Shown one piece after another: positions 2,207-52,181 of a stretch of 64,000 nucleotides of DNA. Origin of the DNA: a virus. The DNA lies in the IMG/VR virus record IMGVR_UViG_3300046534_001374, positions 64,001-128,000 of that record. The stretch is one strand, 5' to 3'. The notes below the pieces were generated by a model. That model was given only the letters and a program-made list of their open reading frames with translations. It had not been told where the DNA came from and did no database searches. The position numbers and the translations under genes were made by a program. Within the stretch, counting starts at the first letter, position 1. Each line of letters starts with the position of its first letter.

Positions 2207-3823
2207 TTAGTAAACATAGAAGGGTGTGCTCATACCTCCTTCTGATTTTGTCTTCTTAAGCCAATCGGAGAGTTCTTTTCTCTCCTCAAGACCTTGTGCC
2301 AAAAGATCATTACCGTTGATTTGCAATCCGCCAATAGTCGATCCGCCAAATTTGGTTAATGTATTACCCATAATAATTTTGGTCAATGCTGTAGAATAAT
2401 CTTGAACCCAAGTTTCGGAAATCATTTGTGATATAGATCTCTCTAAGTTAATACCTAACAGGTAACACCCATTTCGGTAAATCCCGCCACTTCTATTTTT
2501 AAAGATCTTCAGTCTCTGGGTAGTGGGGTTAAAATCAAAACTAGTTTTATTACCACCACCAAATCGCTCACGCATCATCTCCATCATCGACATGCTTAGT
2601 TCATGCGTTACTATGTCGTATCCGTATCTGTTGAAATTTCTACCACCAGAGCCATTATACCCGAAAGTTTGTTGTGCTATGATATACTCAAAGCTGAATA
2701 ACCCAATTCCGAAATTGTTCGAAGACATAGGGGCAACCTCAAATACACCAGATATTTTTCGACTCTCGCCTCTGTCGTGATCTTGGTAAATATCAAAAGG
2801 CTCAACTCTAGTATCATACACCAAGGTTGTTACGTTTTTATTAAACTCTACATTTGCCGAAATGGGGTTGGCCGTATCTGGGACTGTATTATTATCGGTA
2901 ACCAATTTGAAACCAGTATTCTTGTCGATATCAAAAGTCCCTACTAATCCTTCGGGTAATGCGAAGTCGTTAACAAATTCAATACTAGCAGTAATATAAC
3001 CACAAGTGTCTAGCTTGCGATCTAAGACGTTGAAGGTTCCCCCTTTGCCTGTATTCAATATTATGGTCTGTAACCCCTCCACGGTGCAGTTAGGGACACT
3101 TGTTACCACAAGGTGTGTTGCTAATGATGGGTCGAAATCGGGATATAACGTTTCATCCACACCCCACCATTCCCAAGCAGAAATACACGGATCTTTATCC
3201 TCCCAACTAATCGGATAGAATTCGGCGATACCGTTTTCAACTTTGACCCAAACATCCAGAACAGGGGAAAGGGATTCTTGAGGAGGATAAGACTCTAAAG
3301 GGGTTATCGTTACCGAGTTAGCATCACAAACTTCAAAAGACCAAGGGTCGGTTGGTTCATAAGTTATTGCAATCGACCCCGTAGTTTCTGTGGCCGAAAC
3401 CGTGAGGCCAGAATCAATCAGCGAGACGCCATTTCCGATAAGGGTAGTCTCTACGGTTTCTCCCGAAACATATTCAGTCTCGATAACATCGCCTGTAAGC
3501 GCAGGGTTTGCGTCTACTCCTGTCTGGCATTGACAGTTGGTGACTATTTCATCCAATCTAATTGAACAACCATCATCTAATGCATCGTCGCAAAATAAAA
3601 CATATTCACGATCATAACCAGCATACCTTGAATATAAATCAATTGCCTCGTCTATGTTATTTGCAATTGCTTCATCTGTAGCATTAATCTTGGACAAAGG
3701 TGCCCCGAGACGGATTTTGATTCTATTAGCAAGGTCTTCGTAAGACTTGATGGAAGAATTCCTATAAGTGGAACCACTCCAGTTATCTGGTAGAACGTTA
3801 TTGGTTGTAATTTCAGAAGCCAT
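2207..3823 (-). CDS. Neck protein (T4 gp13-like) with large central insertion
   Basis: N-terminal 'IKIRLGAP...NIDEAIDLYSRY' and C-terminal 'WVQDYSTALTK..MGNTLTKFGG...GGLQING' match gp13 motifs. Confidence 0.8.
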   Translation of the reverse strand: MASEITTNNVLPDNWSGSTYRNSSIKSYEDLANRIKIRLGAPLSKINATDEAIANNIDEAIDLYSRYAGYDREYVLFCDDALDDGCSIRLDEIVTNCQCQTGVDANPALTGDVIETEYVSGETVETTLIGNGVSLIDSGLTVSATETTGSIAITYEPTDPWSFEVCDANSVTITPLESYPPQESLSPVLDVWVKVENGIAEFYPISWEDKDPCISAWEWWGVDETLYPDFDPSLATHLVVTSVPNCTVEGLQTIILNTGKGGTFNVLDRKLDTCGYITASIEFVNDFALPEGLVGTFDIDKNTGFKLVTDNNTVPDTANPISANVEFNKNVTTLVYDTRVEPFDIYQDHDRGESRKISGVFEVAPMSSNNFGIGLFSFEYIIAQQTFGYNGSGGRNFNRYGYDIVTHELSMSMMEMMRERFGGGNKTSFDFNPTTQRLKIFKNRSGGIYRNGCYLLGINLERSISQMISETWVQDYSTALTKIIMGNTLTKFGGSTIGGLQINGNDLLAQGLEERKELSDWLKKTKSEGGMSTPFYVY

Positions 3824-3854: not shown

Positions 3855-3938
3855 ATCCAACAAGACGTGAGAGAGCGACGATCTGCCGCTAGTAAAGTTT
3901 ATGGTTATATTAGATCGCGTTTTAATTCTGCGTTCATA
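3855..3938 (+). repeat. Solitary short attC-like element related to the 47.5-50.4 kb array
   Basis: ATCCAAC-aagac-gtgagagagcgacgatct...tagatcgcgttttaattc-tgc-GTTCATA. It shares the left arm and part of the loop with the array repeats and lies in a divergent intergenic region. Confidence 0.75.
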
Positions 3939-3976
3939 AACATTGATTAAACCCAACCTAAACCTTAATTACAATT

Positions 3977-4801
3977 ATGGCAAAAAAAGAATCTGAAAAG
4001 TTCACCTCAATTATTGAATCACTTAAAAAGATTAACGATTCTAAGAGAATTAGTTTTAAACTACCGTCCTCTAAGATCGAGGTTGAATTAAATCCACTAC
4101 AAGCAAAGCACATTTCACAAATCAACAGTTCGTTTATGGCTGGTGGTAGTGACGGAACCTTTGCGGCTAGCTTTATCGGTTTATTGAAGAGGTTACTAAC
4201 TGATGTATTGATTCTTCCTGAAGGAAATACCTTCAAAGATTTTGATACTATTGATATGCATTATATCTTGTTCAAAATGAGAGAACTGATCGATCCGATT
4301 TTTAATATAAAATCTGGTGATGGTGAAAATGATATTGCAATCGATATTAAAAACCATATTAAAAATCTTGATAAACTTAAAAACATCAAAAAAGAAATCA
4401 CTTTCGGTAATACTTCTTGTAAAGTTACATTACAGTTACCTAGCTTCGAACATTACGCCAAGTATAGTAAATTCATCGAGATAGCCCACAAAAGCGCCAG
4501 AGATCAAAAAAAACCTAATTTTGAGAATCTTACCAAGGATGTCTTCTCTTTTAGTATATTAACGTATATCTATAAATTGTCGGTTATTGTCGATAAGGAA
4601 GAACATGAATTTATTTTCTCTGAAGAGACACCAGCGAACCAATCAGAAATTCTTGATCACATACCTAAAGACGAATACTCGGAAATCTTCAAATCTATTT
4701 CCAAATTAACAGAACCTATCCAAAAATGTCTAGAAACAGATGTCGAAGATGTTTCTATTCCTATCGACCATACATTTCTGATTCAGAACATGGATAGTTA
4801 A
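3977..4801 (+). CDS. Baseplate hub assembly protein (gp26-like)
   Basis: 'FKLPSS...L.PL' and 'FDTIDMHYILFKMR' motifs; 274 aa; late motif TAATTA 5 nt upstream. Confidence 0.65.
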   Translation: MAKKESEKFTSIIESLKKINDSKRISFKLPSSKIEVELNPLQAKHISQINSSFMAGGSDGTFAASFIGLLKRLLTDVLILPEGNTFKDFDTIDMHYILFKMRELIDPIFNIKSGDGENDIAIDIKNHIKNLDKLKNIKKEITFGNTSCKVTLQLPSFEHYAKYSKFIEIAHKSARDQKKPNFENLTKDVFSFSILTYIYKLSVIVDKEEHEFIFSEETPANQSEILDHIPKDEYSEIFKSISKLTEPIQKCLETDVEDVSIPIDHTFLIQNMDS

Positions 4802-8764: not shown

Positions 8765-9535
8765 TTAAAAACTAGCATAAGCGGGTGGGGTTTTACGGGT
8801 TCTTTCGTTATACTCTCTCTCCATTTCCTCAAAATCCTCAAATTTCTTAACAATAAATTTGACGATTTCGGATCTCACGATATCGTCGGAGGTTAATTGG
8901 AAGAAATTAATGCCCTTATCCACACATTCGGGTGTATCGAAAATTTGTTTGGCTGTCTCTAGGCCCGACCCTTTAATGTCGGACTGTTGGCTATCGCCAC
9001 ACATGATCAATTTCGAACCCTTACCGATACGAGTCATAAGGGTTTTCACTTCATCTATACTGAAATTTTGGATTTCATCAGCAATTACATAATGATCTAC
9101 CCAATTTTGGCCTCTTAGGAAATTTATAGGAGCCGCCTTCAACGGAAGTCCAGACCTAGACCCTACCTCAACTATCTCTTCTACCTTAGAGTCTAGGATA
9201 GCCTTATAATTGGAAAACTTGGCATTTTCGTCACCAGCTAAATATCCCATAGATTTAGACGCACTTTCAATGACCGTTCGTAGATATAAAATATCTTTAA
9301 AATCTTGTTCTTGGTATGCTTTCAGTGCTGCATAGACCGATAGATAACTTTTCCCTACTCCGGCTGGGCCGTCAATTATTACAATTTTAACAGTGTCGTC
9401 CAACATAGCATGTAAAATTTCTCGTTGGTTTTTCGAAAACTTAAAATCCCTTTTATTGAAGGCTATCTTTGTTACCGATGAATTTTTAGATAAAGCTTGA
9501 TTAATATCCGTTACGGATAAGTTATTATTTGACAT
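8765..9535 (-). CDS. phoH: PhoH-family ATPase
   Basis: GPAGVGKS, FLRGQ, DEIQN, TRIG, GDSQQSD and DIVRS motifs. Confidence 0.95.
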   Translation of the reverse strand: MSNNNLSVTDINQALSKNSSVTKIAFNKRDFKFSKNQREILHAMLDDTVKIVIIDGPAGVGKSYLSVYAALKAYQEQDFKDILYLRTVIESASKSMGYLAGDENAKFSNYKAILDSKVEEIVEVGSRSGLPLKAAPINFLRGQNWVDHYVIADEIQNFSIDEVKTLMTRIGKGSKLIMCGDSQQSDIKGSGLETAKQIFDTPECVDKGINFFQLTSDDIVRSEIVKFIVKKFEDFEEMEREYNERTRKTPPAYASF

Positions 9536-9627
9536 CTAAATTTAATTATACCTCACAAACATAAATTCAATCAAACCTATTAAATTAATTTGGGTTGCAA
9601 TAAATTGATTAGTTCATAATTAAATAT

Positions 9628-10776
9628 ATGAAGCAAAAATATACTAAAGAAGTGATAAAATCTATAGCCGGAAAATACACATCGAAAAAGGAATTTATAG
9701 CTAATGATCCTAATGTTTATGGATATATGCGGCGTAAAGGTGAAGATTTTTCTAAAGAAGCTTGTGCTCATATGACACAGCTTAGAAGGAAACATACTGA
9801 CGAATCATTGAAAGATATAGCCAAAGAATTTATGTCCCGAACAGAATTACAAAGGGGTGATGCCTCGGCTTACAGTTGTATTAGAAAAAAAGGTAAACAA
9901 TTCATGAACGAGGCATGTGAACATATGATTCAAGGTAGATTTTCTATAGCACAACTAATGTGTAAAAAGATATTTGAAAATATACTTGATAGTGTTTGTG
10001 TGTATGATACCCGAAAAGTTATTACTCCCTATGAAATTGATATATGGTTTAAAGAGTTTAATTTGGCAATAGAGTATAATGGAAAATTTTGGCATGCCAA
10101 AGAATGTGCAATAAGAAGAGATGCTATTAAAAAGAAAATTTGTGAAGATAGAGGTATACACTTAATAACCATATACGAAGGGGTCAAAGATTACGAGACC
10201 GAAGTTAGGCATAAAATAATAGAAATATTACCACTTATTAATAATATTACCAAAAAACAAATAACTACACAAAATGTTTTAGATGTCGATTGTTCGACAA
10301 TATGGGATGATATACTGAAGAGTAATAGTATTGACGAAATCAATAAGAAAATAAAAAAATGTAAAAACATAAAAGAATTCAAAGAAAAACATTATACCAA
10401 TTATAAATATATCCACAAAAGTGGAAATACAGATATGTTAGACTGTATCAGAGAAAAAGAAAATGAAAATTTGAGTGATGTAGAACTTATGCGGAAATGT
10501 TCAGAAATAACCCATTATGCTAAATTTATAACAGATCATAAAAATTTATACACAATTACCCACAGACGGGGATTATTAGATTCTGTAGCCAAAAATATGA
10601 TTCTCACCAATAGAAGATATAGATTTCATAAACATGAAGATATTATTAATCTGGCGGGAGAATATAAAAATAAGTCTTCTATTGAAAAGGGTGACTGTGC
10701 TTTGTTTAAAGAAATTAACAAAAGAGAAGATATTTCTTGGAGTGACATCTTATTTTTAGCGAAAAGAAAATTCTAA
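9628..10776 (+). CDS. Putative homing endonuclease (PD-(D/E)XK/Vsr-like core with repeated DNA-binding modules)
   Basis: 'EIDIWF...LAIEYNGKFWH' nuclease core plus repeated 'KY..K.EF...D..AY..R.G...C.HM' modules. Very AT-rich and opposite in strand to the flanking block. Confidence 0.7.
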   Translation: MKQKYTKEVIKSIAGKYTSKKEFIANDPNVYGYMRRKGEDFSKEACAHMTQLRRKHTDESLKDIAKEFMSRTELQRGDASAYSCIRKKGKQFMNEACEHMIQGRFSIAQLMCKKIFENILDSVCVYDTRKVITPYEIDIWFKEFNLAIEYNGKFWHAKECAIRRDAIKKKICEDRGIHLITIYEGVKDYETEVRHKIIEILPLINNITKKQITTQNVLDVDCSTIWDDILKSNSIDEINKKIKKCKNIKEFKEKHYTNYKYIHKSGNTDMLDCIREKENENLSDVELMRKCSEITHYAKFITDHKNLYTITHRRGLLDSVAKNMILTNRRYRFHKHEDIINLAGEYKNKSSIEKGDCALFKEINKREDISWSDILFLAKRKF

Positions 10777-17479: not shown

Positions 17480-17651
17480 GGTCTTCAGCTTTAGGGATTG
17501 CGACAACCACTTCTTGGATGTCCTTCTTTTCTAAACCAATCTTTTCCCAGTTGATATCACTGATATTGTTTGCGCTTTTTAACACATCCAAACCAGATTC
17601 TCCGACTTGTTTCGTGATCTGCTCTTGTATTCTTTTTACATCTTCTGTCAT
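17472..17651 (-). CDS. Small hypothetical protein (59 aa, not in ORF track)
   Basis: MTEDVKRIQEQ...KAEDHD*; its start overlaps the gp46 stop codon. Confidence 0.55.
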   Translation of the reverse strand: MTEDVKRIQEQITKQVGESGLDVLKSANNISDINWEKIGLEKKDIQEVVVAIPKAEDHD

Positions 17652-19492
17652 TATAGTATTCTACTTTGTCCTTTTTCTTTTACCACGTTAATAATTTTAG
17701 CATCGGGAATATCAAATTGTGTTTTGTGTGTAATGATATACGGGTTCTCTCCGTGCTCTTTTTGCCTTTCGACTAGGATTGCTGATATAGCATCTAAACC
17801 TGATTGGTCAACAGCATAATCAAAAGACTCGTCAATCAGTTTAATATTGAAACTAATCTGATTCTGAATTCTGAGGATATCAGAGAAAGTTAGGAATAAG
17901 GCCATATTGATTCTCCACTTCTCACCGCCCGAGAATGACTCATACTGCATCTCAAGACCTCCTAACGTCTTCATGGAGTATTCCATATGCTCATCAAACA
18001 AAACCTCGCAAGGAGCACCAAGACGCATTAGATACGCATTAAGGCTAGTATTAAACAAGGTGATCAGTTTCGAGAGGATTGAACTTCTCAAACCCTTCTC
18101 GCTGAATACGATTTTTACGTGGTGTAAAACTTCGAGTTCTGTTTCTAGTGTTTCTAATTCGGTTTTAAAGATTTTAATCTTCTTTTCGGTCTCCGAATAA
18201 TCCCTCATCAAGGTTTTCAAAATAGAACTGTCTTCCGGCTTCTTGATATCTTCCAGAGCATTTTTCCTATCCTTCTTAAGGATCTCGATTTCCCTAATCT
18301 TCTTTTCGTAATCAGAAATTTCTTTCTGATTCTTGAAAGCTTTGCTTGTTAGATCCGATCTAGCGTTTTGAACTTTAAATTCTTTCTGTTCGAGTAATTT
18401 GATCTCTTCGTTGAGTTCTTTATAATTCACTCGTTGATCAACGATCAATTCCAAAAGAGTTTCATTCTCATTAACCATTCTTTTACAATCAGCATCGATA
18501 ACATCTCTATCATCTTTGTCAATATCTTTACCACATTCGCCGCAAACCTTAGCTTTAGTCTTTCGTTCTACTTCTCTCTTATTAGTTTCGATAGTTGATA
18601 GGTTAATATCGGCTTCATATTTTATGGTAGAGCGTGATTCTTTCTTTACAGAAACCTTTGTTTGAATCTTAGTTAGTAACTGGGAATATTTATCAGTCTC
18701 CAACGCTAGATCTATCGCCTCGGGCTTATCACCGATAAAAGATTCCATTCTCGAAATTTCTATTTCAAGTCTTCCAAGCTGTTCTTGTTTCTTTTTGGTT
18801 GCATTTTCAAATTCAACCTTAACCGTTTTGATTTGATTCTTGATAATGGGGAGGTGTGGTTCGGAAGAGCTAATTTCGGTCTGCTTCTTACTAACCTTTT
18901 TGCTGACTGTGTTGAATTCTTCTCTTGCCAGTTTCTCGGCTTCTTTGATATATGTGAAATCAAAAATAGTTCCAATGAACTTCTCCCTTTCAGTTTTCAT
19001 CATACTAAAGAAAGAACCTGAGTCTGCTTTGGTTGCCATAGACTGCATGAAGACTTCCTTTTTGATACCTTTCAGTAGAGTGTCGGCAATGTATGCTTGT
19101 GTCGCAGGTGAATTACTTTGGGTTTTATTATCACCGTCTACAGTCAAAGTAAGCTTCGATGGATTAATTGTCCTGTTAATAACGACTGGGATAATTGTGT
19201 CATCTTCCGCAATATCCAACTTCAATTCTACGATACATTTCTTCTTACCTCCACGATTGAATGGGATTGAGTCTTTGGGGAATTTCTTTCTAGAGGTCTC
19301 TCCATACAAAGCATAAACTAAACTGTCAAAGAAGATGGCAGTCTTACCAACTCCATTATTCTGGTCCTCTTGCCCTACAGTTCGGTTTTCACCTCTGATG
19401 AAATAAATACCGTCTTCGAATGTATAACTTACCTTCTCACCACAAGAAAGGAAGTATGAAAGGTCGATTGATTTAAATTTAATTCGTCTCAT
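17651..19492 (-). CDS. Recombination endonuclease ATPase subunit (gp46/SbcC/Rad50)
   Basis: NGVGKT Walker A, coiled coil with CxxC hook, FSGGE signature, LIDE and ITH motifs. Confidence 0.93.
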   Translation of the reverse strand: MRRIKFKSIDLSYFLSCGEKVSYTFEDGIYFIRGENRTVGQEDQNNGVGKTAIFFDSLVYALYGETSRKKFPKDSIPFNRGGKKKCIVELKLDIAEDDTIIPVVINRTINPSKLTLTVDGDNKTQSNSPATQAYIADTLLKGIKKEVFMQSMATKADSGSFFSMMKTEREKFIGTIFDFTYIKEAEKLAREEFNTVSKKVSKKQTEISSSEPHLPIIKNQIKTVKVEFENATKKKQEQLGRLEIEISRMESFIGDKPEAIDLALETDKYSQLLTKIQTKVSVKKESRSTIKYEADINLSTIETNKREVERKTKAKVCGECGKDIDKDDRDVIDADCKRMVNENETLLELIVDQRVNYKELNEEIKLLEQKEFKVQNARSDLTSKAFKNQKEISDYEKKIREIEILKKDRKNALEDIKKPEDSSILKTLMRDYSETEKKIKIFKTELETLETELEVLHHVKIVFSEKGLRSSILSKLITLFNTSLNAYLMRLGAPCEVLFDEHMEYSMKTLGGLEMQYESFSGGEKWRINMALFLTFSDILRIQNQISFNIKLIDESFDYAVDQSGLDAISAILVERQKEHGENPYIITHKTQFDIPDAKIINVVKEKGQSRIL

Positions 19493-45846: not shown

Positions 45847-46947
45847 TTAAGTTATTGGTGTTTCCAATCTGGTGTCTAAATCGGCAATAGCTGCATCTAG
45901 TTGTTTAGCCCACGCCTTTTCAGCAGCAATGATATTAGTCGTATCACTAGACCCACCGGATAACGGAGGTTTTGAATTGTTGCTTGCATTGTTCTCGGTT
46001 TTATTGATCTTGTCTCCGAGTATATCAACAAATGCGGTTTCTCGACCGATAGAAATATTTAAAGGTTCGTTGGAAACGCTATATTCATGACACATAGGAT
46101 ATAGATTGTTAATCTTTTTAACCAGATCCCCGTATTGTTGGAATAGAATTCCTAGATATTTTTTTCTGTTATCCAAAACATCCAAGAAGCTAAAAGTATC
46201 TTGTGCTAAATTATATAGATGCGCCAAAGGTTCGTCCATAATATTAAATATTTTACCATATGTGCATTTAGGTAAAACTCTCGAACCTAGTCTTTGGAAT
46301 AGTCTGATATTGTCGTGGAAGTTTTCAGCATATTCAGGTAGCATACGAATCCATGTGTGTTGTCCTAGAACACTACTAAGTCCTGTGCTGTCCAATACAT
46401 TACCTATAATACCGTCAACCATATTTATTGCATTGTCAGGAATTATGATGTTAGAATAGATCGTTCCTAGAGCTTCTGAAACTTCCGTAAACAACGGCAT
46501 CTTATTCAGACTAGAGGTTATAGCCGTTCTAACACCATCAGGTAGGAGTATATCTACATTTTTAAGGTAACCACGCAAAAGAGTTGCAGACACATCCTGA
46601 AGAGTAATGTCCCCGATAAGATCGCCCAGCTCACTCACATCCTTTACAATACGCTGTATACCTATAACCGTATTTTCAATCTCCAAAATTGAGGATCTAA
46701 ATCCCTCATCTCTACCGAATAGGTTTTTAGTGAATGATACTAATTCTGTGCTTGGACCCCTATAAGGCCCGTGCAGCTTCGCAACTTTGGCTACAGAATC
46801 CTCAACACTACCAACGGATTGATTTATGAGAGAAATGTTATCAAAAACTTTACGTGTTTTGTAACCATCTCGACTCGGCATTTGGGACTCTAAATATTCG
46901 CGACCAACAATCTCTGCTGCGGCGATGGGGTTACAAATATTACTCAC
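45847..46947 (-). CDS. Hypothetical late (virion) protein
   Basis: 366 aa; TAAGTA 6 nt upstream of the GTG. Confidence 0.65.
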   Translation of the reverse strand: MSNICNPIAAAEIVGREYLESQMPSRDGYKTRKVFDNISLINQSVGSVEDSVAKVAKLHGPYRGPSTELVSFTKNLFGRDEGFRSSILEIENTVIGIQRIVKDVSELGDLIGDITLQDVSATLLRGYLKNVDILLPDGVRTAITSSLNKMPLFTEVSEALGTIYSNIIIPDNAINMVDGIIGNVLDSTGLSSVLGQHTWIRMLPEYAENFHDNIRLFQRLGSRVLPKCTYGKIFNIMDEPLAHLYNLAQDTFSFLDVLDNRKKYLGILFQQYGDLVKKINNLYPMCHEYSVSNEPLNISIGRETAFVDILGDKINKTENNASNNSKPPLSGGSSDTTNIIAAEKAWAKQLDAAIADLDTRLETPIT

Positions 46948-46991
46948 TGAATTTACTTATGTTGTGGGTTTGTTATTACTAAGTATAACAT

Positions 46992-47249
46992 ATGAAAACA
47001 ACGATTGCGGCTATTTTTGTTAACCTGCTAAAATTCCTAGCTGCTCGCGAATTAAATTCGAACGTTAGAACAATCATAGAACTCTATAATGAAGAAGAAA
47101 AACTTATATCAAAAATTAGCGAAGCTCACGGGTCTCTCGATTTTAGCCCTGATGGTTCTTACATCTTGCAACTCAAGCATAGGCTTGAAGCCAATAGAAA
47201 CATCATCAAACTTCTCGAAGCCAAAACGCTTCCAAGTTCCAGCGAATAG
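46992..47249 (+). CDS. Putative i-spanin (Rz-like)
   Basis: Weakly hydrophobic N-terminus plus coiled coil; overlapped by a lipoprotein gene in the +1 frame; TAAGTA late motif. Confidence 0.5.
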   Translation: MKTTIAAIFVNLLKFLAARELNSNVRTIIELYNEEEKLISKISEAHGSLDFSPDGSYILQLKHRLEANRNIIKLLEAKTLPSSSE

Positions 47250-47352
47250 TAAAGTGGTATTTAAAGGGAAGGTATTCACATTACCCGAAGATACCGATGT
47301 TGTTACTTTGGAACAACACAAAGAAGAGGTAACTAGATTACTAATAGATTAA
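47089..47352 (+). CDS. Putative o-spanin lipoprotein (Rz1-like)
   Basis: Basic N-terminus, hydrophobic stretch and LTSC lipobox; overlaps the previous gene. Confidence 0.6.
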   Translation: MKKKNLYQKLAKLTGLSILALMVLTSCNSSIGLKPIETSSNFSKPKRFQVPANSKVVFKGKVFTLPEDTDVVTLEQHKEEVTRLLID

Positions 47353-47525
47353 CCTTCTAGTAATTGCTTTTCTCCATCCGGTTCGATGCTTTCTTCTATT
47401 TTTAGTTGGTCCAAGTTTTTGAGAATTAAGATAGGGTATTCAACCCATCTATGAGGGGCATCATTGAGAAGATCGATTAATTGGGTTAATTTAGATTCCT
47501 CAATAACAAATAATTTTTCATCCAT
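47349..47525 (-). CDS. Small hypothetical late protein
   Basis: Start reassigned to MDEKLF, 5 nt after TAATTA. Confidence 0.55.
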   Translation of the reverse strand: MDEKLFVIEESKLTQLIDLLNDAPHRWVEYPILILKNLDQLKIEESIEPDGEKQLLEG

Positions 47526-47564
47526 ATTTTTAATTATCGGGAGATTGGTTTTAAACAATTATTT

Positions 47565-47683
47565 TATGAACGTCAAAGTGGAGGCGCGATCTAAACCGAA
47601 CTCCGTTCGGGATTAAAACGCGATCTAATATAAAACTCAACTAAGTTAGCGGTAGATCGTCGCTCTCCCACGCCTTGTTGTCT
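47565..47683 (-). repeat. attC site F (last in array)
   Basis: Top strand: AGACAAC-aaggc-gtg[g]gag[a]gcg[a]cgatcta...tagatcgcgcctccac-tttgac-GTTCATA. Confidence 0.88.
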
Positions 47684-47730
47684 CTTCAAGTAAAACTTGA
47701 ACTATTGATTTCGACATCTAATTAAATGTG

Positions 47731-47928
47731 ATGAAAAGTAAAATCAAAGCATGGTGGGAAACATTTTGGTTCAAATATGTCCCTGCTTCTACAAGTCAAG
47801 TGTTGTCGTGGCAGAGTAAACAGCGCGAGGAGCTGAATCGTCGGGATGCGGAGCGATATTACAATCGTCAAAATATGAAGAATAATCAACAAAAGCAGAA
47901 AGACGGTCCTGAAAATCACGAAGGATAG
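47731..47928 (+). CDS. Cassette 5 antisense ORF
   Basis: TAATTA at 47719-24, 6 nt before the ATG. Confidence 0.5.
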   Translation: MKSKIKAWWETFWFKYVPASTSQVLSWQSKQREELNRRDAERYYNRQNMKNNQQKQKDGPENHEG

Positions 47929-48106
47929 CCTCCAATTCACCACTAATAAAAGATTCTTCTATTACTTCTCCGTTTGGTTGAAAAGTTTTTCCACTGAATT
48001 TCTCATCATACGATTCATCTGAGAGTTTCTCCTTGATCACAATCCTAACGGATGATAAGTTGGAAAACGTGTAATCTAATTCGTGGTGTTTTGAGAATCT
48101 ATTCAT
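47789..48106 (-). CDS. Cassette 5 ORF (hypothetical)
   Basis: ATG 16 nt after the G of GTTGTCT. Confidence 0.5.
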   Translation of the reverse strand: MNRFSKHHELDYTFSNLSSVRIVIKEKLSDESYDEKFSGKTFQPNGEVIEESFISGELEAILRDFQDRLSAFVDYSSYFDDCNIAPHPDDSAPRAVYSATTTLDL

Positions 48107-48115
48107 GATTTTCTA

Positions 48116-48247
48116 AGACAACGATGGAGCATATCTAATCAATACCAATTTCAATATGAATACAAAAAATAATAAACAAACAACTAATGACTCCTCCAAA
48201 ACCAACCAAGGTAGCGGTAGTGAGTTAGATACTGCGCCTTGTTCACC
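48116..48247 (-). repeat. attC site E (divergent sequence family)
   Basis: Top strand: GGTGAAC-aaggc-gca[g]tatctaa[c]tc...gattagatatgc-tccatc-GTTGTCT. Confidence 0.82.
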
Positions 48248-48515
48248 TCTCCGTCTTTTTGATCTGACTAAGACAACACCAGAAATGGTTGAACAAGAAT
48301 CAAATTACGAATCCCCTACTTTGAAGCAGAAACAACTAGCTCTGAAAAAAGAGGTATATCCAGATCAATCCCCGCAAGCTCTATCAAAGAGTTATCAAGA
48401 CGCTCTTGAGCTTGGTTACGTGAAACCTCAGAATCCCAATTTTGATTGGGAACCTTATAAAGATTTGGTTTGTAGATTGGTAAATTCCGAAGATCAGATT
48501 TCAGCTTCGGTATAA
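48156..48515 (+). CDS. Cassette 4 antisense ORF starting inside attC E
   Basis: ATG in the attC loop; reads through the arm as SELDTAPCSP. Confidence 0.45.
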   Translation: MNTKNNKQTTNDSSKTNQGSGSELDTAPCSPLRLFDLTKTTPEMVEQESNYESPTLKQKQLALKKEVYPDQSPQALSKSYQDALELGYVKPQNPNFDWEPYKDLVCRLVNSEDQISASV

Positions 48516-48591
48516 TATATTGAAGCTGTTTCTTCCTGTGGTGTAATGATTCTAGTATTTCTAGGCATTGTGCTTTTGTTGGATCGGGCAT
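48316..48591 (-). CDS. Cassette 4 ORF (hypothetical)
   Basis: ATG 19 nt after the G of GTTCACC; AGGA upstream. Confidence 0.5.
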   Translation of the reverse strand: MPDPTKAQCLEILESLHHRKKQLQYIIPKLKSDLRNLPIYKPNLYKVPNQNWDSEVSRNQAQERLDNSLIELAGIDLDIPLFSELVVSASK

Positions 48592-48603
48592 GTCCTATTT
48601 CTA

Positions 48604-48722
48604 GGTGAACGTCAATGTGGAGGCGCGATCTAAACCGAACTCCGTTCGGGATTAAAACGCGATCTAATATAAAAATAAACTAAGTTAGCGGTAGATCGTC
48701 GCTCTCTCACGTCTTGTTAGCC
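48604..48722 (-). repeat. attC site D
   Basis: GGCTAAC ... GTTCACC, with 3 extrahelical bases. Confidence 0.88.
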
Positions 48723-48752
48723 CTTCAAATGGTTTTAGGGATAAATATAAGC

Positions 48753-48947
48753 ATGAGAAAACCAAACAGCCCACTAAGAACAATGGATAAGCTCCTTAAG
48801 CCATACATGCAGGAAATAAAAAATCCCGATAGCTGTGATGATCTACTAAATTATTTTGCAGATTGTATGGATGAATGGTGGAATAATCTAGATGCACGAA
48901 ATAAAGAATGCCCCCTTCCCCGAAAAGCTAATCTAGAGAAAATATAG
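48753..48947 (+). CDS. Cassette 3 antisense ORF
   Basis: TAAATA at 48742-47, 5 nt before the ATG. Confidence 0.5.
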   Translation: MRKPNSPLRTMDKLLKPYMQEIKNPDSCDDLLNYFADCMDEWWNNLDARNKECPLPRKANLEKI

Positions 48948-49164
48948 TTCCGTCAGTTTCAATTCGTTTGGCAAAATCTTGTATCTTATCTTTATCTTTC
49001 AGTGAATTTAGAGCTACTTCAATCTGAGAAGCCGTTAGATTCCCTTTTTCTTGTTCAGTGATATGCCATTCTCCAAAATCTTCAGAGTTTATTTTCTTTA
49101 AGATTTCGGTTTCCAGTTCTCTTTTTGGGTTTAGTCTAAGATTATAGTTATTTGGTTCTGACAT
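48928..49164 (-). CDS. Cassette 3 ORF (hypothetical)
   Basis: ATG 24 nt after the G of GTTAGCC. Confidence 0.55.
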   Translation of the reverse strand: MSEPNNYNLRLNPKRELETEILKKINSEDFGEWHITEQEKGNLTASQIEVALNSLKDKDKIQDFAKRIETDGTIFSLD

Positions 49165-49181
49165 GATTTCTTAGATTCTCG

Positions 49182-49299
49182 GGCTAACGTCAATGTGGAG
49201 GCGCGATCTAAACCGAACTCCGTTCGGAATTAAAACGCGATAATACATAAACATAACTAAGCTAGCGGTAGATCGTCGCCCTCTCACGCCTTGTTCTGC
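49182..49299 (-). repeat. attC site C
   Basis: GCAGAAC ... GTTAGCC. Confidence 0.88.
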
Positions 49300-49319
49300 A
49301 TCTGGGCCTAAGTATGAAT

Positions 49320-49670
49320 ATGACCTATGAACAAGAACGAATCCTAATAAACCAAACAATCCAAGATTACCTAAATTCATGGCATCATCGCATCTGGACC
49401 CAAGCGATCACTCAACTTGACCTGTCAGTTCCAAATACCCCCTTTCGTCTTGTGAGATTTGAACTAGGGCGACTTCTTCTTGTTTTATCTCACCTTGTGT
49501 TTGTCGGTTCCCATCTAAAAGACAGAGTGCTTCAAACATTCGGTGCTGGGGAAAAATTTGACACCTTACAAGGTCCAGTGGCAACATTAGGTTTTCGAGA
49601 TCAGTTCTCAGACTATACCAAAATCTACCGACATAAGATCCACCACGAAGATCAAAATCGTTGCAAATGA
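49320..49670 (+). CDS. Cassette 2 antisense ORF
   Basis: TAAGTA at 49309-14, 5 nt before the ATG. Confidence 0.45.
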   Translation: MTYEQERILINQTIQDYLNSWHHRIWTQAITQLDLSVPNTPFRLVRFELGRLLLVLSHLVFVGSHLKDRVLQTFGAGEKFDTLQGPVATLGFRDQFSDYTKIYRHKIHHEDQNRCK

Positions 49671-49782
49671 AAATAATCCTTTCGGAGCTTTGATATACCA
49701 TTTTCGCATCAAGAAAATTACTTAGATCAAGTTCTTCGTCGGGATCACTATAATACAGTCTAAAATATGTAGGTTTACTCAT
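49408..49782 (-). CDS. Cassette 2 ORF (hypothetical)
   Basis: ATG 23 nt after the G of GTTCTGC. Confidence 0.5.
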   Translation of the reverse strand: MSKPTYFRLYYSDPDEELDLSNFLDAKMVYQSSERIIFICNDFDLRGGSYVGRFWYSLRTDLENLMLPLDLVRCQIFPQHRMFEALCLLDGNRQTQGEIKQEEVALVQISQDERGYLELTGQVE

Positions 49783-49798
49783 GGATTCTTAGTTTCTA

Positions 49799-49917
49799 GC
49801 AGAACGTCAATGTGGAGGCGCGATCTAAACCGAACGTAGTTCGGGATTAAAACGCGATCTAATATAAAAATAAACTAAGTTAGCGGTAGATCGTCGTCCT
49901 CCCACGTCTTGTTCTGC
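49799..49917 (-). repeat. attC site B
   Basis: GCAGAAC-aagac-gtg[g]gagg[a]cg[a]cgatcta...tagatcgcgcctccac-attgac-GTTCTGC. Confidence 0.88.
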
Positions 49918-49958
49918 ATCTGGATTTGAAAAGTTTGATGTGATTACTAATTAAAGTA

Positions 49959-50108
49959 ATGAACGAACAAAAAACTTTGGTGTATGATGGTGAACTAACT
50001 CTAGACGAAGCCAGAAACAAAATCAGAAACAAAGATGGTTCAAAACTTACGGATGCGGAGTTTGTTGAATTATTCCAACCCTTTACCAAGGAAGCTTCTC
50101 GTCCCTAA
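49959..50108 (+). CDS. Cassette 1 antisense ORF (49 aa, not in ORF track)
   Basis: MNEQKTLVYDGELTLDEARNK...EASRP*; TAATTA at 49948-53, 5 nt before the ATG. Confidence 0.5.
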   Translation: MNEQKTLVYDGELTLDEARNKIRNKDGSKLTDAEFVELFQPFTKEASRP

Positions 50109-50271
50109 TTTCAATATTGTTTAAAATCACAAGCGGTAACCCCTCATTTGTTCGTTTAGTAATTTTAGATTGTTTCTCACACCACTCCATTTCTGATTGA
50201 TTTGGTGTTTGGAATGACCAAATATAATATTCTGGTCCTTGTGAGTTGGTTACGGTGTATTGCTGGATCAT
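50083..50271 (-). CDS. Cassette 1 ORF (hypothetical)
   Basis: ATG 30 nt after the G of GTTCTGC. Confidence 0.5.
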   Translation of the reverse strand: MIQQYTVTNSQGPEYYIWSFQTPNQSEMEWCEKQSKITKRTNEGLPLVILNNIEIRDEKLPW

Positions 50272-50294
50272 AATTATCTAGTAGGTAATTTATT

Positions 50295-50413
50295 GCAGAA
50301 CGTCAATGTGGAGGCGCGATCTAAACCGAACTCCGTTCGGAATTGAAACGCGATCTGATATAAAAATAAACTAAGCTAGCGGTAGAACGTCACTCTCTCA
50401 CGTCTTATTAATA
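50295..50413 (-). repeat. attC site A (first in array, R'' decayed)
   Basis: R'' reads TATTAAT (AAC lost), with extra mismatches in the arm; R' GTTCTGC is intact. Confidence 0.8.
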
Positions 50414-50456
50414 ATATAAAACTTGAAAAGAGGAATTTTTATAGTAATCTCATCTT

Positions 50457-51359
50457 ATGAAGAACATCCTAATAGATGCCAACAATATGCTACACAGGAG
50501 CATAGGCAACACCGAGAAGTATCTAGAAAAAAATTCGAGAGCAACTAGAAAGCTGGACAATAAAGGAAACGATGTCACTGCTTTGCAGAAGTTTTTTTCG
50601 GATATATACTATACCTCCTCAGATTTTCTTGATGCAGACACAGAAATTTATATGGTGTGGGATAGGAAGATCGACCCAGAAGCGATCAACTGGAGAACCA
50701 CAGTTAACCCACTTTATAAAGCAAACAGAGGATCTATAGATACTAATGGTCCGAAGAAGCAAGTGTATAGCCTATGTAAACATGCCAAATATATAGCAGA
50801 TGCCTACGGGTTTCATTCAGTATTTCCCCTCTGCTCCGAAGCAGACGACCTAATACATTATCTCAATAAAAACCTAGAAGGCGGTAGTTTGATTATTTCT
50901 TCCGACCATGACTTCTTCCAATGTATATCTGAGGATTGCAGTATTTATAACCCCCAGAAAAGAATGCTTCTGGAACTTGATAACTGGGATGAATATGCCC
51001 CAGTATCTAAAGAACACTATGTTTTATGGAAATCAATTAAGGGCGACCCCTCTGATAACATCAAAGGGTTGTTCCGTTATGGTGAGAAGAAAGCTAAAAA
51101 GCTGGTCGAGAACTGGGACGAGCTTTCACCTAAACTGACAGAGGAGCAAATAGATATTATTGAGGAAACTAAAAGTTTAATTGATCTTAATTTTAAACCT
51201 TTATCTGATAAAGAGGTGTGCTTCATTAAGAGGCAGATCGAGCCTAAAGAAAAAAAGAAAGATTGGGAATTGACTCGGATTCTGGACAACTACCATGTCA
51301 CCTACAAGACCAGAGAGATGTGGGATAACTTCAACACCCTAAAAGAGTTATATCTATAA
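50457..51359 (+). CDS. rnh: T4-type RNase H / 5'-3' exonuclease
   Basis: IDANN, YKANR, EADD, SSDHDF.Q and GDPSDNIKG motifs. Confidence 0.92.
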   Translation: MKNILIDANNMLHRSIGNTEKYLEKNSRATRKLDNKGNDVTALQKFFSDIYYTSSDFLDADTEIYMVWDRKIDPEAINWRTTVNPLYKANRGSIDTNGPKKQVYSLCKHAKYIADAYGFHSVFPLCSEADDLIHYLNKNLEGGSLIISSDHDFFQCISEDCSIYNPQKRMLLELDNWDEYAPVSKEHYVLWKSIKGDPSDNIKGLFRYGEKKAKKLVENWDELSPKLTEEQIDIIEETKSLIDLNFKPLSDKEVCFIKRQIEPKEKKKDWELTRILDNYHVTYKTREMWDNFNTLKELYL

Positions 51360-51802
51360 TGGAACCGAAACAAATATTGAATAAAACGAAAGCATGGCTT
51401 GTTGGTGGGGTTGTGTTAAGTCTTTTGGTGTTTTATGTGGTTGGATTGGTGGCGAAGCTTTCGATCTTGGCCTTATTATTAACTGTAATTTCGGTTTTGA
51501 TTTATAACATAAAACTAAGTAATAAAATATTTCAAGAAGAAGCAATAACTAGTAACACTAAGTTTCGGGAAGAAACCAGACGAGCTGAGATAGACCACCA
51601 GAAACAAATACACCAAAGGATTTCAGATAGAATCTGGGACATTCCAATTGAGATGCGTTGTAGGCATTGTTCATCTATTGAGGAAATAGATTTTGGATTA
51701 GAGGTCCAAGGATTTAAATGTAAGAAATGTAATGGCTACAACAAGCTATTCATACATTTCACAGCAATAGGAGAAACCGAAAACTCAAAAAGCAATGGAT
51801 AG
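51359..51802 (+). CDS. Membrane protein with C-terminal zinc ribbon
   Basis: Two TM segments; CxxC...CxxC. Confidence 0.65.
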   Translation: MEPKQILNKTKAWLVGGVVLSLLVFYVVGLVAKLSILALLLTVISVLIYNIKLSNKIFQEEAITSNTKFREETRRAEIDHQKQIHQRISDRIWDIPIEMRCRHCSSIEEIDFGLEVQGFKCKKCNGYNKLFIHFTAIGETENSKSNG

Positions 51803-52181
51803 CGATTTAGATAAAGCAATTAAAGGTAATGATTTAGGGATACCTAGAGGTATAAAGGGAATAACTACATACCAAGGGCCAAACACGGTCGGTCCTATTC
51901 CGGTGGAGCTTATGGCCGAACCAGCGGCAAATCCTTTCAGACCATGCTTAGATGACGTTTTAAATAGGCTACCTTCGGCAGACCAGCATCTAGTTAGGCA
52001 GCATATATCCATTCTTTCCGGTGAACGGTTCCCCAAGTCTTCGGGGATACTGGCTGAAAGGTTGGATAGAATGGTTGGAAAAATCAAACATAGACAAGAG
52101 CTTGAGCCTGAAGGTGATAATAAAAAAGAACTTTTGGAGTTGTTCGCAATCTTCGCGACACACTATATTCACTATATTTAA
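51795..52181 (+). CDS. Hypothetical protein
   Basis: Operonic ORF. Confidence 0.6.
   Translation: MDSDLDKAIKGNDLGIPRGIKGITTYQGPNTVGPIPVELMAEPAANPFRPCLDDVLNRLPSADQHLVRQHISILSGERFPKSSGILAERLDRMVGKIKHRQELEPEGDNKKELLELFAIFATHYIHYI

Follow-up and report, generated by a model that had tools for sequence, protein, structure and literature searches.

A probable integron-type gene cassette array, with no integrase nearby, in a distant T4-like phage

We describe here a candidate array of integron gene cassettes in viral DNA, located in a stretch of 64,000 nucleotides (‘the window’) that corresponds to bases 64001–128000 of the 139,595-bp IMG/VR virus record IMGVR_UViG_3300046534_001374. The record is linear, approximately 65% complete, and 38% G+C. 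Six folded sites occupy window positions 47565–50413, all of them with the minus strand as their top strand, and delimit five units with small open reading frames (ORFs). One flank of this region is formed by a 58-amino acid (aa) backbone gene (47349–47525, minus strand), which is conserved in a related phage, and the other by a conserved backbone gene for an rnh-like 5′–3′ exonuclease (50457–51359, plus strand; PF02739 and PF01367). The latter, a 300-aa gene diverging from the first site, was considered as an integrase and rejected on the strength of these two family matches. A first-pass annotation of the same DNA had read the six sites as attC, i.e. as sites that are recombined as folded single strands by integron integrases (IntI).

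In top-strand order, the sites are designated A to F. Site A (50295–50413) is a type 1 site of 119 nt, with a left box TATTAAT in place of the expected nnnnAAC and a right box (R′) GTTCTGC. It is followed by site B (49799–49917; type 1, left box [R″] GCAGAAC, R′ GTTCTGC), site C (49182–49299; type 1, 118 nt, R″ GCAGAAC, R′ GTTAGCC), site D (48604–48722; type 1, R″ GGCTAAC, R′ GTTCACC), site E (48116–48247; type 2, 132 nt, R″ GGTGAAC, R′ GTTGTCT), and site F, the last of the array (47565–47683; type 1, R″ AGACAAC, R′ GTTCATA). All six are on the minus strand, and the type 1 sites A, B, C, D, and F are 118–119 nt in length. The general layout consists of nnnnAAC, a 5-nt spacer AAGRC, an arm with two or three extra bases, a loop, the partner arm, a 6-nt spacer, and GTTnnnn. 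The right spacer is WTTGAC, or TCCATC in site E, and the two spacers are not complementary and cannot pair with each other. In type 1 sites, the arm GTG[G]GAG[A]GCG[A]CGATCTA pairs with TAGATCG-CGC-CTC-CAC, giving a 16-bp stem with three bulges, and the DNA fold of site B has a computed energy of −24.9 kcal/mol (z −4.6). The palindromes of 118–132 bp that the first-pass annotation had reported in a single orientation are all present, and the spacers, extrahelical bases, and AAC/GTT boxes that it described are found as well, the left box of site A excepted.

The type 2 fold is cleanest outside the phage, in three short contigs from sister samples (L072, L073, and L074), in which GCA[G]TATCTA[A]CTCACTAC pairs with GTAGTGAG-TAGATA-TGC; the copy in L072 has, in order, 3 bp, a bulge, 6 bp, a bulge, and 8 bp.

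Four further sites are found in the phage. A solo site, S (3855–3938, plus strand), is of type 1, has its right arm deleted, ends in GTTCATA like site F, and sits between the divergent genes 2207–3823 (minus strand) and 3977–4801 (plus strand). A second array (array 2) of three sites lies on the opposite strand at G000 9037–10207 and comprises two type 1 sites and one type 2 site (G3, G000 10076–10207). This brings the total for the phage to ten sites at three loci, all intergenic. The left box contains AAC in nine of the ten, the right box contains GTT in all nine with an intact right end, and the seven type 1 sites are 86.5–95.5% identical in pairwise comparison. Known attC sites range from about 57 to 141 nt, and the lengths of the phage sites (118–119 and 132 nt) fall within this range.

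The units between the sites are bounded at the point between G and TT of the right box (G/TT), and their G-to-G distances of 496, 617, 578, 488, and 551 bp are those already given by the first-pass annotation. All five in the window, and both in array 2, obey one rule: the four letters that vary in each R′ recur, reverse-complemented, in the R″ of the next site. The box pairs are GTTCTGC–GCAGAAC (twice), GTTAGCC–GGCTAAC, GTTCACC–GGTGAAC, and GTTGTCT–AGACAAC in the window, and GTTGTCT–AGACAAC and GTTCGCT–AGCGAAC in array 2. Counting only the five distinct box pairs, the probability of such agreement by chance is approximately 4^-20. Because the two boxes belonging to the same site do not match in C, D, E, and F (four of the five window sites with an AAC box), the rule is not merely the consequence of a longer hairpin. 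It is the scar of units that were bounded at G/TT and once existed as circles, with the R″ and R′ of a single attC paired. The same rule is obeyed in other arrays on metagenome contigs (including L072–L079), in which it applies to 11 of 12 site pairs, the exception being a pair that is not adjacent. In one G+C-rich cassette, present in L074 and L079, GAT/ATC boxes replace GTT/AAC (GATAGTG pairs with CACTATC), a natural variant consistent with the GWT core described for secondary sites of the integrase.

That the array was gained at this locus is shown by comparison with L059, a 15.5-kb contig from a relative (84% for the rnh protein). Window positions 45900–47536 align with L059 5451–7087 at 77% identity, and positions 50418–51955 align with L059 7108–8634 at 72%; between the two aligned blocks lie 20 nt in L059 versus 2,881 nt in this phage. 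The segment absent from L059 (47537–50417), which extends from the 58-aa gene to rnh, is thus a lineage-specific insertion. More distant relatives (62% and 54% for rnh) contain no site of this attC family. A comparison of the locus among related phages was among the checks proposed by the first-pass annotation, which had also termed the locus hypervariable; variation does exist between lineages, as the empty site of L059 attests, and none is visible within the lineage of this phage, as judged from three overlapping assemblies. Misassembly of the array can be ruled out, since both of its junctions with the phage backbone recur at 99.98–100% identity in four independent assemblies from other samples (L055, L056, L070, and L071).

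Two observations concern the outer ends of the array. The left box of site A (TATTAAT, 50407–50413) and the R′ of site F (GTTCATA, 47565–47571) can pair at six of seven positions, counting one G–T pair, as would be expected if cassettes had later inserted into a single resident attC and split it; array 2 does not show the same. In addition, the approximately 45 nt to the right of the last R′ of site F (47526–47571) and of site S (3932–3979) are significantly alike, although different genes follow. The shared pattern is GTTCATAAA..ATTG.TTAAA.CC.AA.CT..TAATTA; its score was reached in 0 of 2000 shuffles, and the L059 version is 17 nt shorter. This flank could be a recipient (attI-like) sequence or, alternatively, the remnant of a common ancestral insertion.

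The five cassettes, all on the minus strand, carry small genes in either orientation. Cassette 1 (49805–50300, 496 bp; TTCTGC...GCAGAAC plus site B) has as its best-scoring ORF a reverse one of 49 aa (49959–50108, plus strand) with a TAATTA-N5-ATG start, and its forward 62-aa ORF (50083–50271, minus strand) has a poor coding score. Cassette 2 (49188–49804, 617 bp) contains a forward 124-aa ORF (49408–49782, minus strand), for which no relatives were found among 5.8 billion proteins. Cassette 3 (48610–49187, 578 bp; TTAGCC...GGCTAAC plus site D) contains a forward 78-aa ORF (48928–49164, minus strand), cassette 4 (48122–48609, 488 bp; TTCACC...GGTGAAC plus site E) a reverse 119-aa gene (48156–48515, plus strand), and cassette 5 (47571–48121, 551 bp; TTGTCT...AGACAAC plus site F) a forward 105-aa ORF (47789–48106, minus strand). 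A 12-bp hairpin followed by a T-run (48502–48528, plus strand) overlaps the stop codon of the cassette 4 gene; it resembles a terminator and is the sole strong terminator candidate in the array. According to a codon-usage score trained on the long genes of the phage, one ORF is favoured per cassette, which is the reverse one in cassettes 1 and 4 and the forward one in cassettes 2, 3, and 5. Overlapping second ORFs score near zero, and convergent gene pairs are therefore not established. The first-pass annotation had placed an ORF 16–30 nt after G/TT in each unit: an ATG is indeed present there in all five, but only one ORF per cassette scores well as coding, and in two of the five that ORF is a reverse one. 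Searches of Pfam, PHROGs, and PADLOC returned nothing credible for the cassette ORFs. The seven cassette bodies of the two arrays are mutually unrelated, and their G+C content (0.32–0.40) brackets that of the phage (0.38).

Some cassette genes begin in the manner of the phage’s own genes. The motif TAATTA, followed after 5–6 nt by ATG, is enriched approximately 15-fold before phage genes (approximately 40 genes, that for the tail sheath included). Examples of TAATTA positions in the window are 53794 (sheath gene), 47536, 49948, 3835, and 3966, and the motif also occurs before genes of L059. Within the arrays it is found ahead of a reverse ORF in cassettes 1 and 5 and in the first cassette of array 2. 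Its fixed spacing suggests either a late promoter that is combined with a near-leaderless start, or else a ribosome-binding signal of an unusual kind. In cassette 4 (119 aa) and in the second cassette of array 2 (113 aa), the reverse gene starts instead inside the type 2 loop; these two genes share their first approximately 30 residues (MNTKNNKQTTND...) and diverge completely at the R″ box. A gene that starts within the loop shows that each attC moves together with its upstream body, as it would if the crossover occurs in R′.

The phage sites are not isolated. A scan of metagenome contigs for the core of the right arm retrieved L012, L020, L022, L024, L042, and L047. L012 contains a type 1 site, 87% identical to site B, within an array holding two other site types. 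L020, L022, L024, L042, and L047 (48–51% G+C) contain arrays of shorter sites (approximately 86–88 nt) of the same design: nnnnAAC, AAGNC, G..CG[A]C.., ..C, a TTTGAC-like spacer, and GTTnnnn. Related sites in other arrays vary from 86 to 138 nt in length, and their spacers are likewise non-complementary. One site of L022 has arms identical to those of phage type 1, and in another the stem runs through 3 bp, a bulge, 6 bp, a bulged A, and then 5 bp, which is the geometry of classical sites such as attCaadA7. Beside the type 1 site of L012, a cassette (L012:908–2095) encodes a 395-aa protein without a family match that has a C-terminal RSAVAH motif (Rx4H, HEPN-like); a 49% homologue of this protein is encoded on a bacterial chromosome next to glnA–ntrBC, where it is not a cassette.

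As an independent test, 12 sites, all of them non-phage and none of type 1 or type 2, were aligned, folded with RNAalifold, and converted into a covariance model (R1). The arm helix predicted for the alignment has 11 pairs, all 11 with compensatory changes; bulges occur in the columns where they should, and the bulged A does not vary. R1 was searched against both strands of 134 kb comprising the window, array 2, and four related phages. Its matches are exactly the ten phage sites, each at full length and with agreeing boundaries, at 38.7 to 19.6 bits (E 4e-6 to 0.045); site B is at the top of this range (38.7 bits, E 4e-6), site A lies low in it (21.3 bits, E 0.02), and site S is at the bottom (19.6 bits, E 0.045). 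There was no match in the four related phages or elsewhere in the 134 kb. Other searches were less informative. Rfam, which holds no attC family, yielded no match to the sites; a generic hairpin scanner lacking the spacer signature was abandoned because it produced approximately 10 matches in each shuffled genome; scans of IMG/VR for exact type 1 and type 2 core patterns gave zero or one chance match; and a core scan of genome contigs gave a single chance match, in a G+C-rich coding region. On the evidence of the related contigs and of the model built from non-phage sites, the phage sites are members of a wider attC family, which also occurs in environmental metagenomes in arrays of heterogeneous composition. 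The attC reading of the first-pass annotation has held on every feature examined: the geometry of boxes, spacers, and bulges, the complementarity of R′ and R″ from cassette to cassette, and the matches to R1.

Cassette 4 has copies elsewhere. Its exact 119-aa product is encoded on L072, L073, and L074, which match window positions 48128–48610 at 98.8–99.4% identity and otherwise match, in the phage, only the type 2 site of array 2. In all three contigs the homology starts at G/TTCACC. The sequence before that point is site D in the phage; in L073 it is another attC, and L072 and L074 have yet another sequence there. On the downstream side, the phage has the 105-aa cassette, L072 a cassette for a 184-aa lipoprotein-like product, and L073 and L074 one for a 133-aa product. 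The 133-aa cassette, in turn, has a different upstream neighbour in L079. Since the upstream junctions share only 7 nt, L072–L074 cannot be repeat-induced chimeras. The cassettes of these contigs are G+C-richer, forward-oriented, and encode secreted proteins, and the contigs look like pieces of bacterial chromosomal arrays; L072 had no BLAST match among the plasmids of PLSDB. At 99.4% identity, the exchange was very recent; at least one cassette has lately been shared between this phage and other arrays, with an upstream break at G/TT. Together with the gain relative to L059, the occurrence of cassette 4 in three other contexts bears out the suggestion of the first-pass annotation that the phage captures or shuffles cassettes.

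Homologous exchange between the sites has also left its mark. Site E is a chimera, its left 97 nt corresponding to the type 2 copy of L072–L074 and its right 27 nt to G3, the other type 2 site of the phage, and type 1 loops are mosaic likewise. Recombination of the T4 type acting on repeats of 119–132 nt explains these patterns best, and it may reshuffle cassettes without an integrase. Promoter early stem-loops (PeSLs) of T4-type phages are units made up of sigma-70 promoters and terminator hairpins that recombine by homology (Arbiol et al. 2010, PMC2839356), and PeSL-like regulatory cassettes, as known from the hyperplastic region of T4-type genomes, would have their genes shuffled by homologous recombination only. 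The resemblance is real: the genome is T4-like, 119-nt repeats that are approximately 90% alike flank ORFans (ORFs without relatives) in a plastic intergenic region, and the mosaic structure of site E makes repeat-mediated homologous exchange probable here too. The phage sites nevertheless contain neither signal. The region has four promoter-like sites versus 9.9 expected; only one of these overlaps a repeat, in site A, and it is a weak one (9 of 12 matches; 50343–50372, plus strand). The other five sites have no promoter-like match, and a terminator-like site lies within none of the six. Nor does homologous exchange provide a reason for units with inverted 7-nt ends. The sites have attC geometry, the same site family delimits cassettes in unrelated, G+C-richer arrays, and cassette 4 breaks at G/TT between flanks that share only 7 nt. 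The lack of a repeated sigma-70 promoter or terminator and the inverted unit ends exclude PeSL units as the main explanation, and we regard a PeSL-like origin as very improbable.

Judged by its gene content, the carrier of the array is a distant T4-like myovirus. Its gp18-type sheath protein, with a sheath domain, is approximately 30% identical to those of cultured T4-like phages, and the record also encodes a gp5-type baseplate protein, rnh, a B-family DNA polymerase, a DnaB-like helicase, an SbcC/gp46-like nuclease subunit, and a large terminase. No cultured phage with a DNA-level match was found (megablast/blastn of the array against 50,697 phage records). An 87-aa ORF (47089–47352, plus strand), with the baseplate genes on one side and the 58-aa gene on the other, has a lipoprotein-type signal (..LMVLTSC), a codon score of approximately 0, and no family match; it is probably what the first-pass annotation had called a ‘spanin-like’ gene. 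The SbcC/gp46-like protein (17651–19492, minus strand) is a subunit of a palindrome-specific nuclease, and it is encoded in a phage that keeps ten long hairpin-forming sites.

The 139.6-kb record, at approximately 65% completeness, contains no tyrosine recombinase (PF00589 or TIGR02249, E ≤ 1), no serine recombinase (PF00239), and no Y1 (HUH) transposase (PF01797). The first-pass annotation had described the locus as a cluster of attC sites lacking integron-integrases (CALIN) and had advised a search for intI beyond the window. The label is apt for the record as a whole, with six sites in 2.85 kb, three more in 1.2 kb, and none of these four families in 139.6 kb, and no intI came to light outside the window either. 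A complete integron would have intI and attI at the head of the array; the gene that adjoins site A is rnh. Because no integrase was found anywhere in the sequence reached, we infer an IntI-type enzyme from the design of the sites alone.

Another recombinase could in principle use such sites, e.g. a small Xer-like enzyme or a phage enzyme encoded in the unsampled third of the genome, in which case the array would be an integron mimic. Two facts would fit: no IntI is linked to the site family in any contig seen, and the identity of the bulged bases departs from that of classical sites. The sites, however, reproduce the classical geometry in detail, with 7-nt AAC/GTT boxes, spacers of 5 and 6 nt, 3 bp, a bulge, 6 bp, and a bulged A in CGAC (as in attCaadA7), and a tyrosine recombinase of any kind is itself absent from the 139.6 kb. 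We consider such a mimic improbable.

The reading that we prefer is that of a genuine integron-type cassette array without a nearby integrase (a CALIN), inserted in the genome of a distant T4-like phage with the 58-aa gene on one side and rnh on the other, and we would put its probability at roughly 85%. Several findings weigh against it. An integrase is missing not only from the record but also from every array contig reached, all of which are short. The array is identical in the three other overlapping assemblies of this phage, and no ongoing shuffling is seen. The junction in the site E chimera lies at least 27 nt from G/TT, which points to homologous rather than site-specific exchange. Any crossover between the boxes would preserve the R′/R″ rule, which therefore demonstrates cassette origin and not the action of an integrase inside the phage. 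Classical attC sites have G as the first extrahelical base, whereas here this base is C or T (bottom strand), and type 1 sites have a third bulge as well. Finally, some sites look decayed: A lacks the AAC box, S has lost its right arm, and in both E and G3 the right arm is degenerate and the spacer reads TCCATC, which is unusual.

Some of the same findings would suit an inert fossil, i.e. blocks of a bacterial chromosomal integron array that the phage acquired through illegitimate or homologous recombination and has merely carried since, without ever being recombined site-specifically in the phage. The missing integrase, the decay of sites A, S, E, and G3, the sameness of the array among overlapping assemblies, and the homologous origin of the site E chimera would all be expected of such a relic. 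So would the way in which the array opens. Integrases can drive the insertion of cassettes at secondary genomic GWT sites, giving rise to attG and to isolated cassettes (Loot et al., bioRxiv 10.1101/2022.09.11.507474), and this is a candidate route for the entry of cassettes into the phage genome; the insertion of a circle at such a site, however, leaves a bare G/TT on the left, whereas both phage arrays begin with a whole attC, the R″ of which is without a partner. Against a fossil stand the occurrence of the sites at three separate loci, all neatly intergenic; the approximately 90% similarity among the seven type 1 sites of the phage, while arrays elsewhere are heterogeneous; the match of cassette G+C content and gene-start motifs to those of the phage; and the 99.4% identity of cassette 4 to copies elsewhere, which bespeaks very recent exchange. 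We take this reading seriously as a partial rival, but on balance we think it unlikely that the array is inert.

If the array is the integron-type cluster that we favour, the mobile unit would be a cassette consisting of TTnnnn, one small gene in either orientation, and its own attC ending in G. An IntI-type tyrosine recombinase supplied in trans would cut and join the folded single-stranded attC DNA, of which T4-type replication should provide an ample supply. The enzyme could come from the host or be encoded in the approximately 35% of the phage genome that lies outside the record, and the homologous recombination of the phage could homogenize or reshuffle the approximately 90%-identical 119-nt sites. 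A broader proposal can be made only tentatively: that this T4-like lineage regularly trades accessory genes by integron recombination, that type 1 represents a phage-specific attC class on phage-born genes, and that cassettes pass in both directions between the phage and bacterial chromosomal arrays during infection, by means of an integrase of the host or one encoded by the phage. The phage-like G+C content of the cassettes and the TAATTA-N5-ATG starts of several of their ORFs are offered as grounds for regarding the genes as possibly phage-born.

Integron-type sites of this kind have precedents on two sides. The chromosomal integron of Vibrio cholerae has repeats of approximately 120–126 nt with homogeneous attC sites. 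Like such sedentary chromosomal integrons, the phage arrays have attC sites that are long (approximately 119 nt) and approximately 90% identical, small cassettes with ORFans, and complementarity of R′ and R″ from one cassette to the next; unlike them, they reside on a phage replicon, have no intI or attI at their head, are short (five and two cassettes), and mix two types of sites. Closer in kind are the CALINs of phages, 17 of which were reported among 10,705 phage genomes, some of them from virulent phages, with IntI1 recombining five of six phage attC sites tested (Qi, Rajabal, Ghaly, Tetu, and Gillings 2023, PMC9892861). These share with the array described here the presence in phages of attC-bounded cassettes, the absence of an integrase nearby, and cassette genes that are mostly of unknown function. 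They differ from it in that here the carrier is T4-like, with ten sites at three loci, seven of them near-identical, an empty site in a sister lineage, a cassette shared at 99.4% identity, and genes in both orientations, some with the start motif of the phage itself. Our finding is accordingly a further case of a published kind, the phage CALIN, and is distinct in its natural evidence and in its T4-like carrier; within the library of papers searched, none on attC arrays in T4-like phages was found.

Integrons have been seen mainly as devices of bacteria, spread by plasmids and transposons. The empty site in a relative, the break points that coincide exactly with cassette boundaries, and a cassette 99.4% identical to copies elsewhere together show recent exchange in the wild that has included a phage. 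If the cassettes were phage-born, the finding would bear on the question, still unsolved, of how cassettes acquire their attC sites, and it would suggest where phage accessory genes, such as those for anti-defence functions, are banked and traded.

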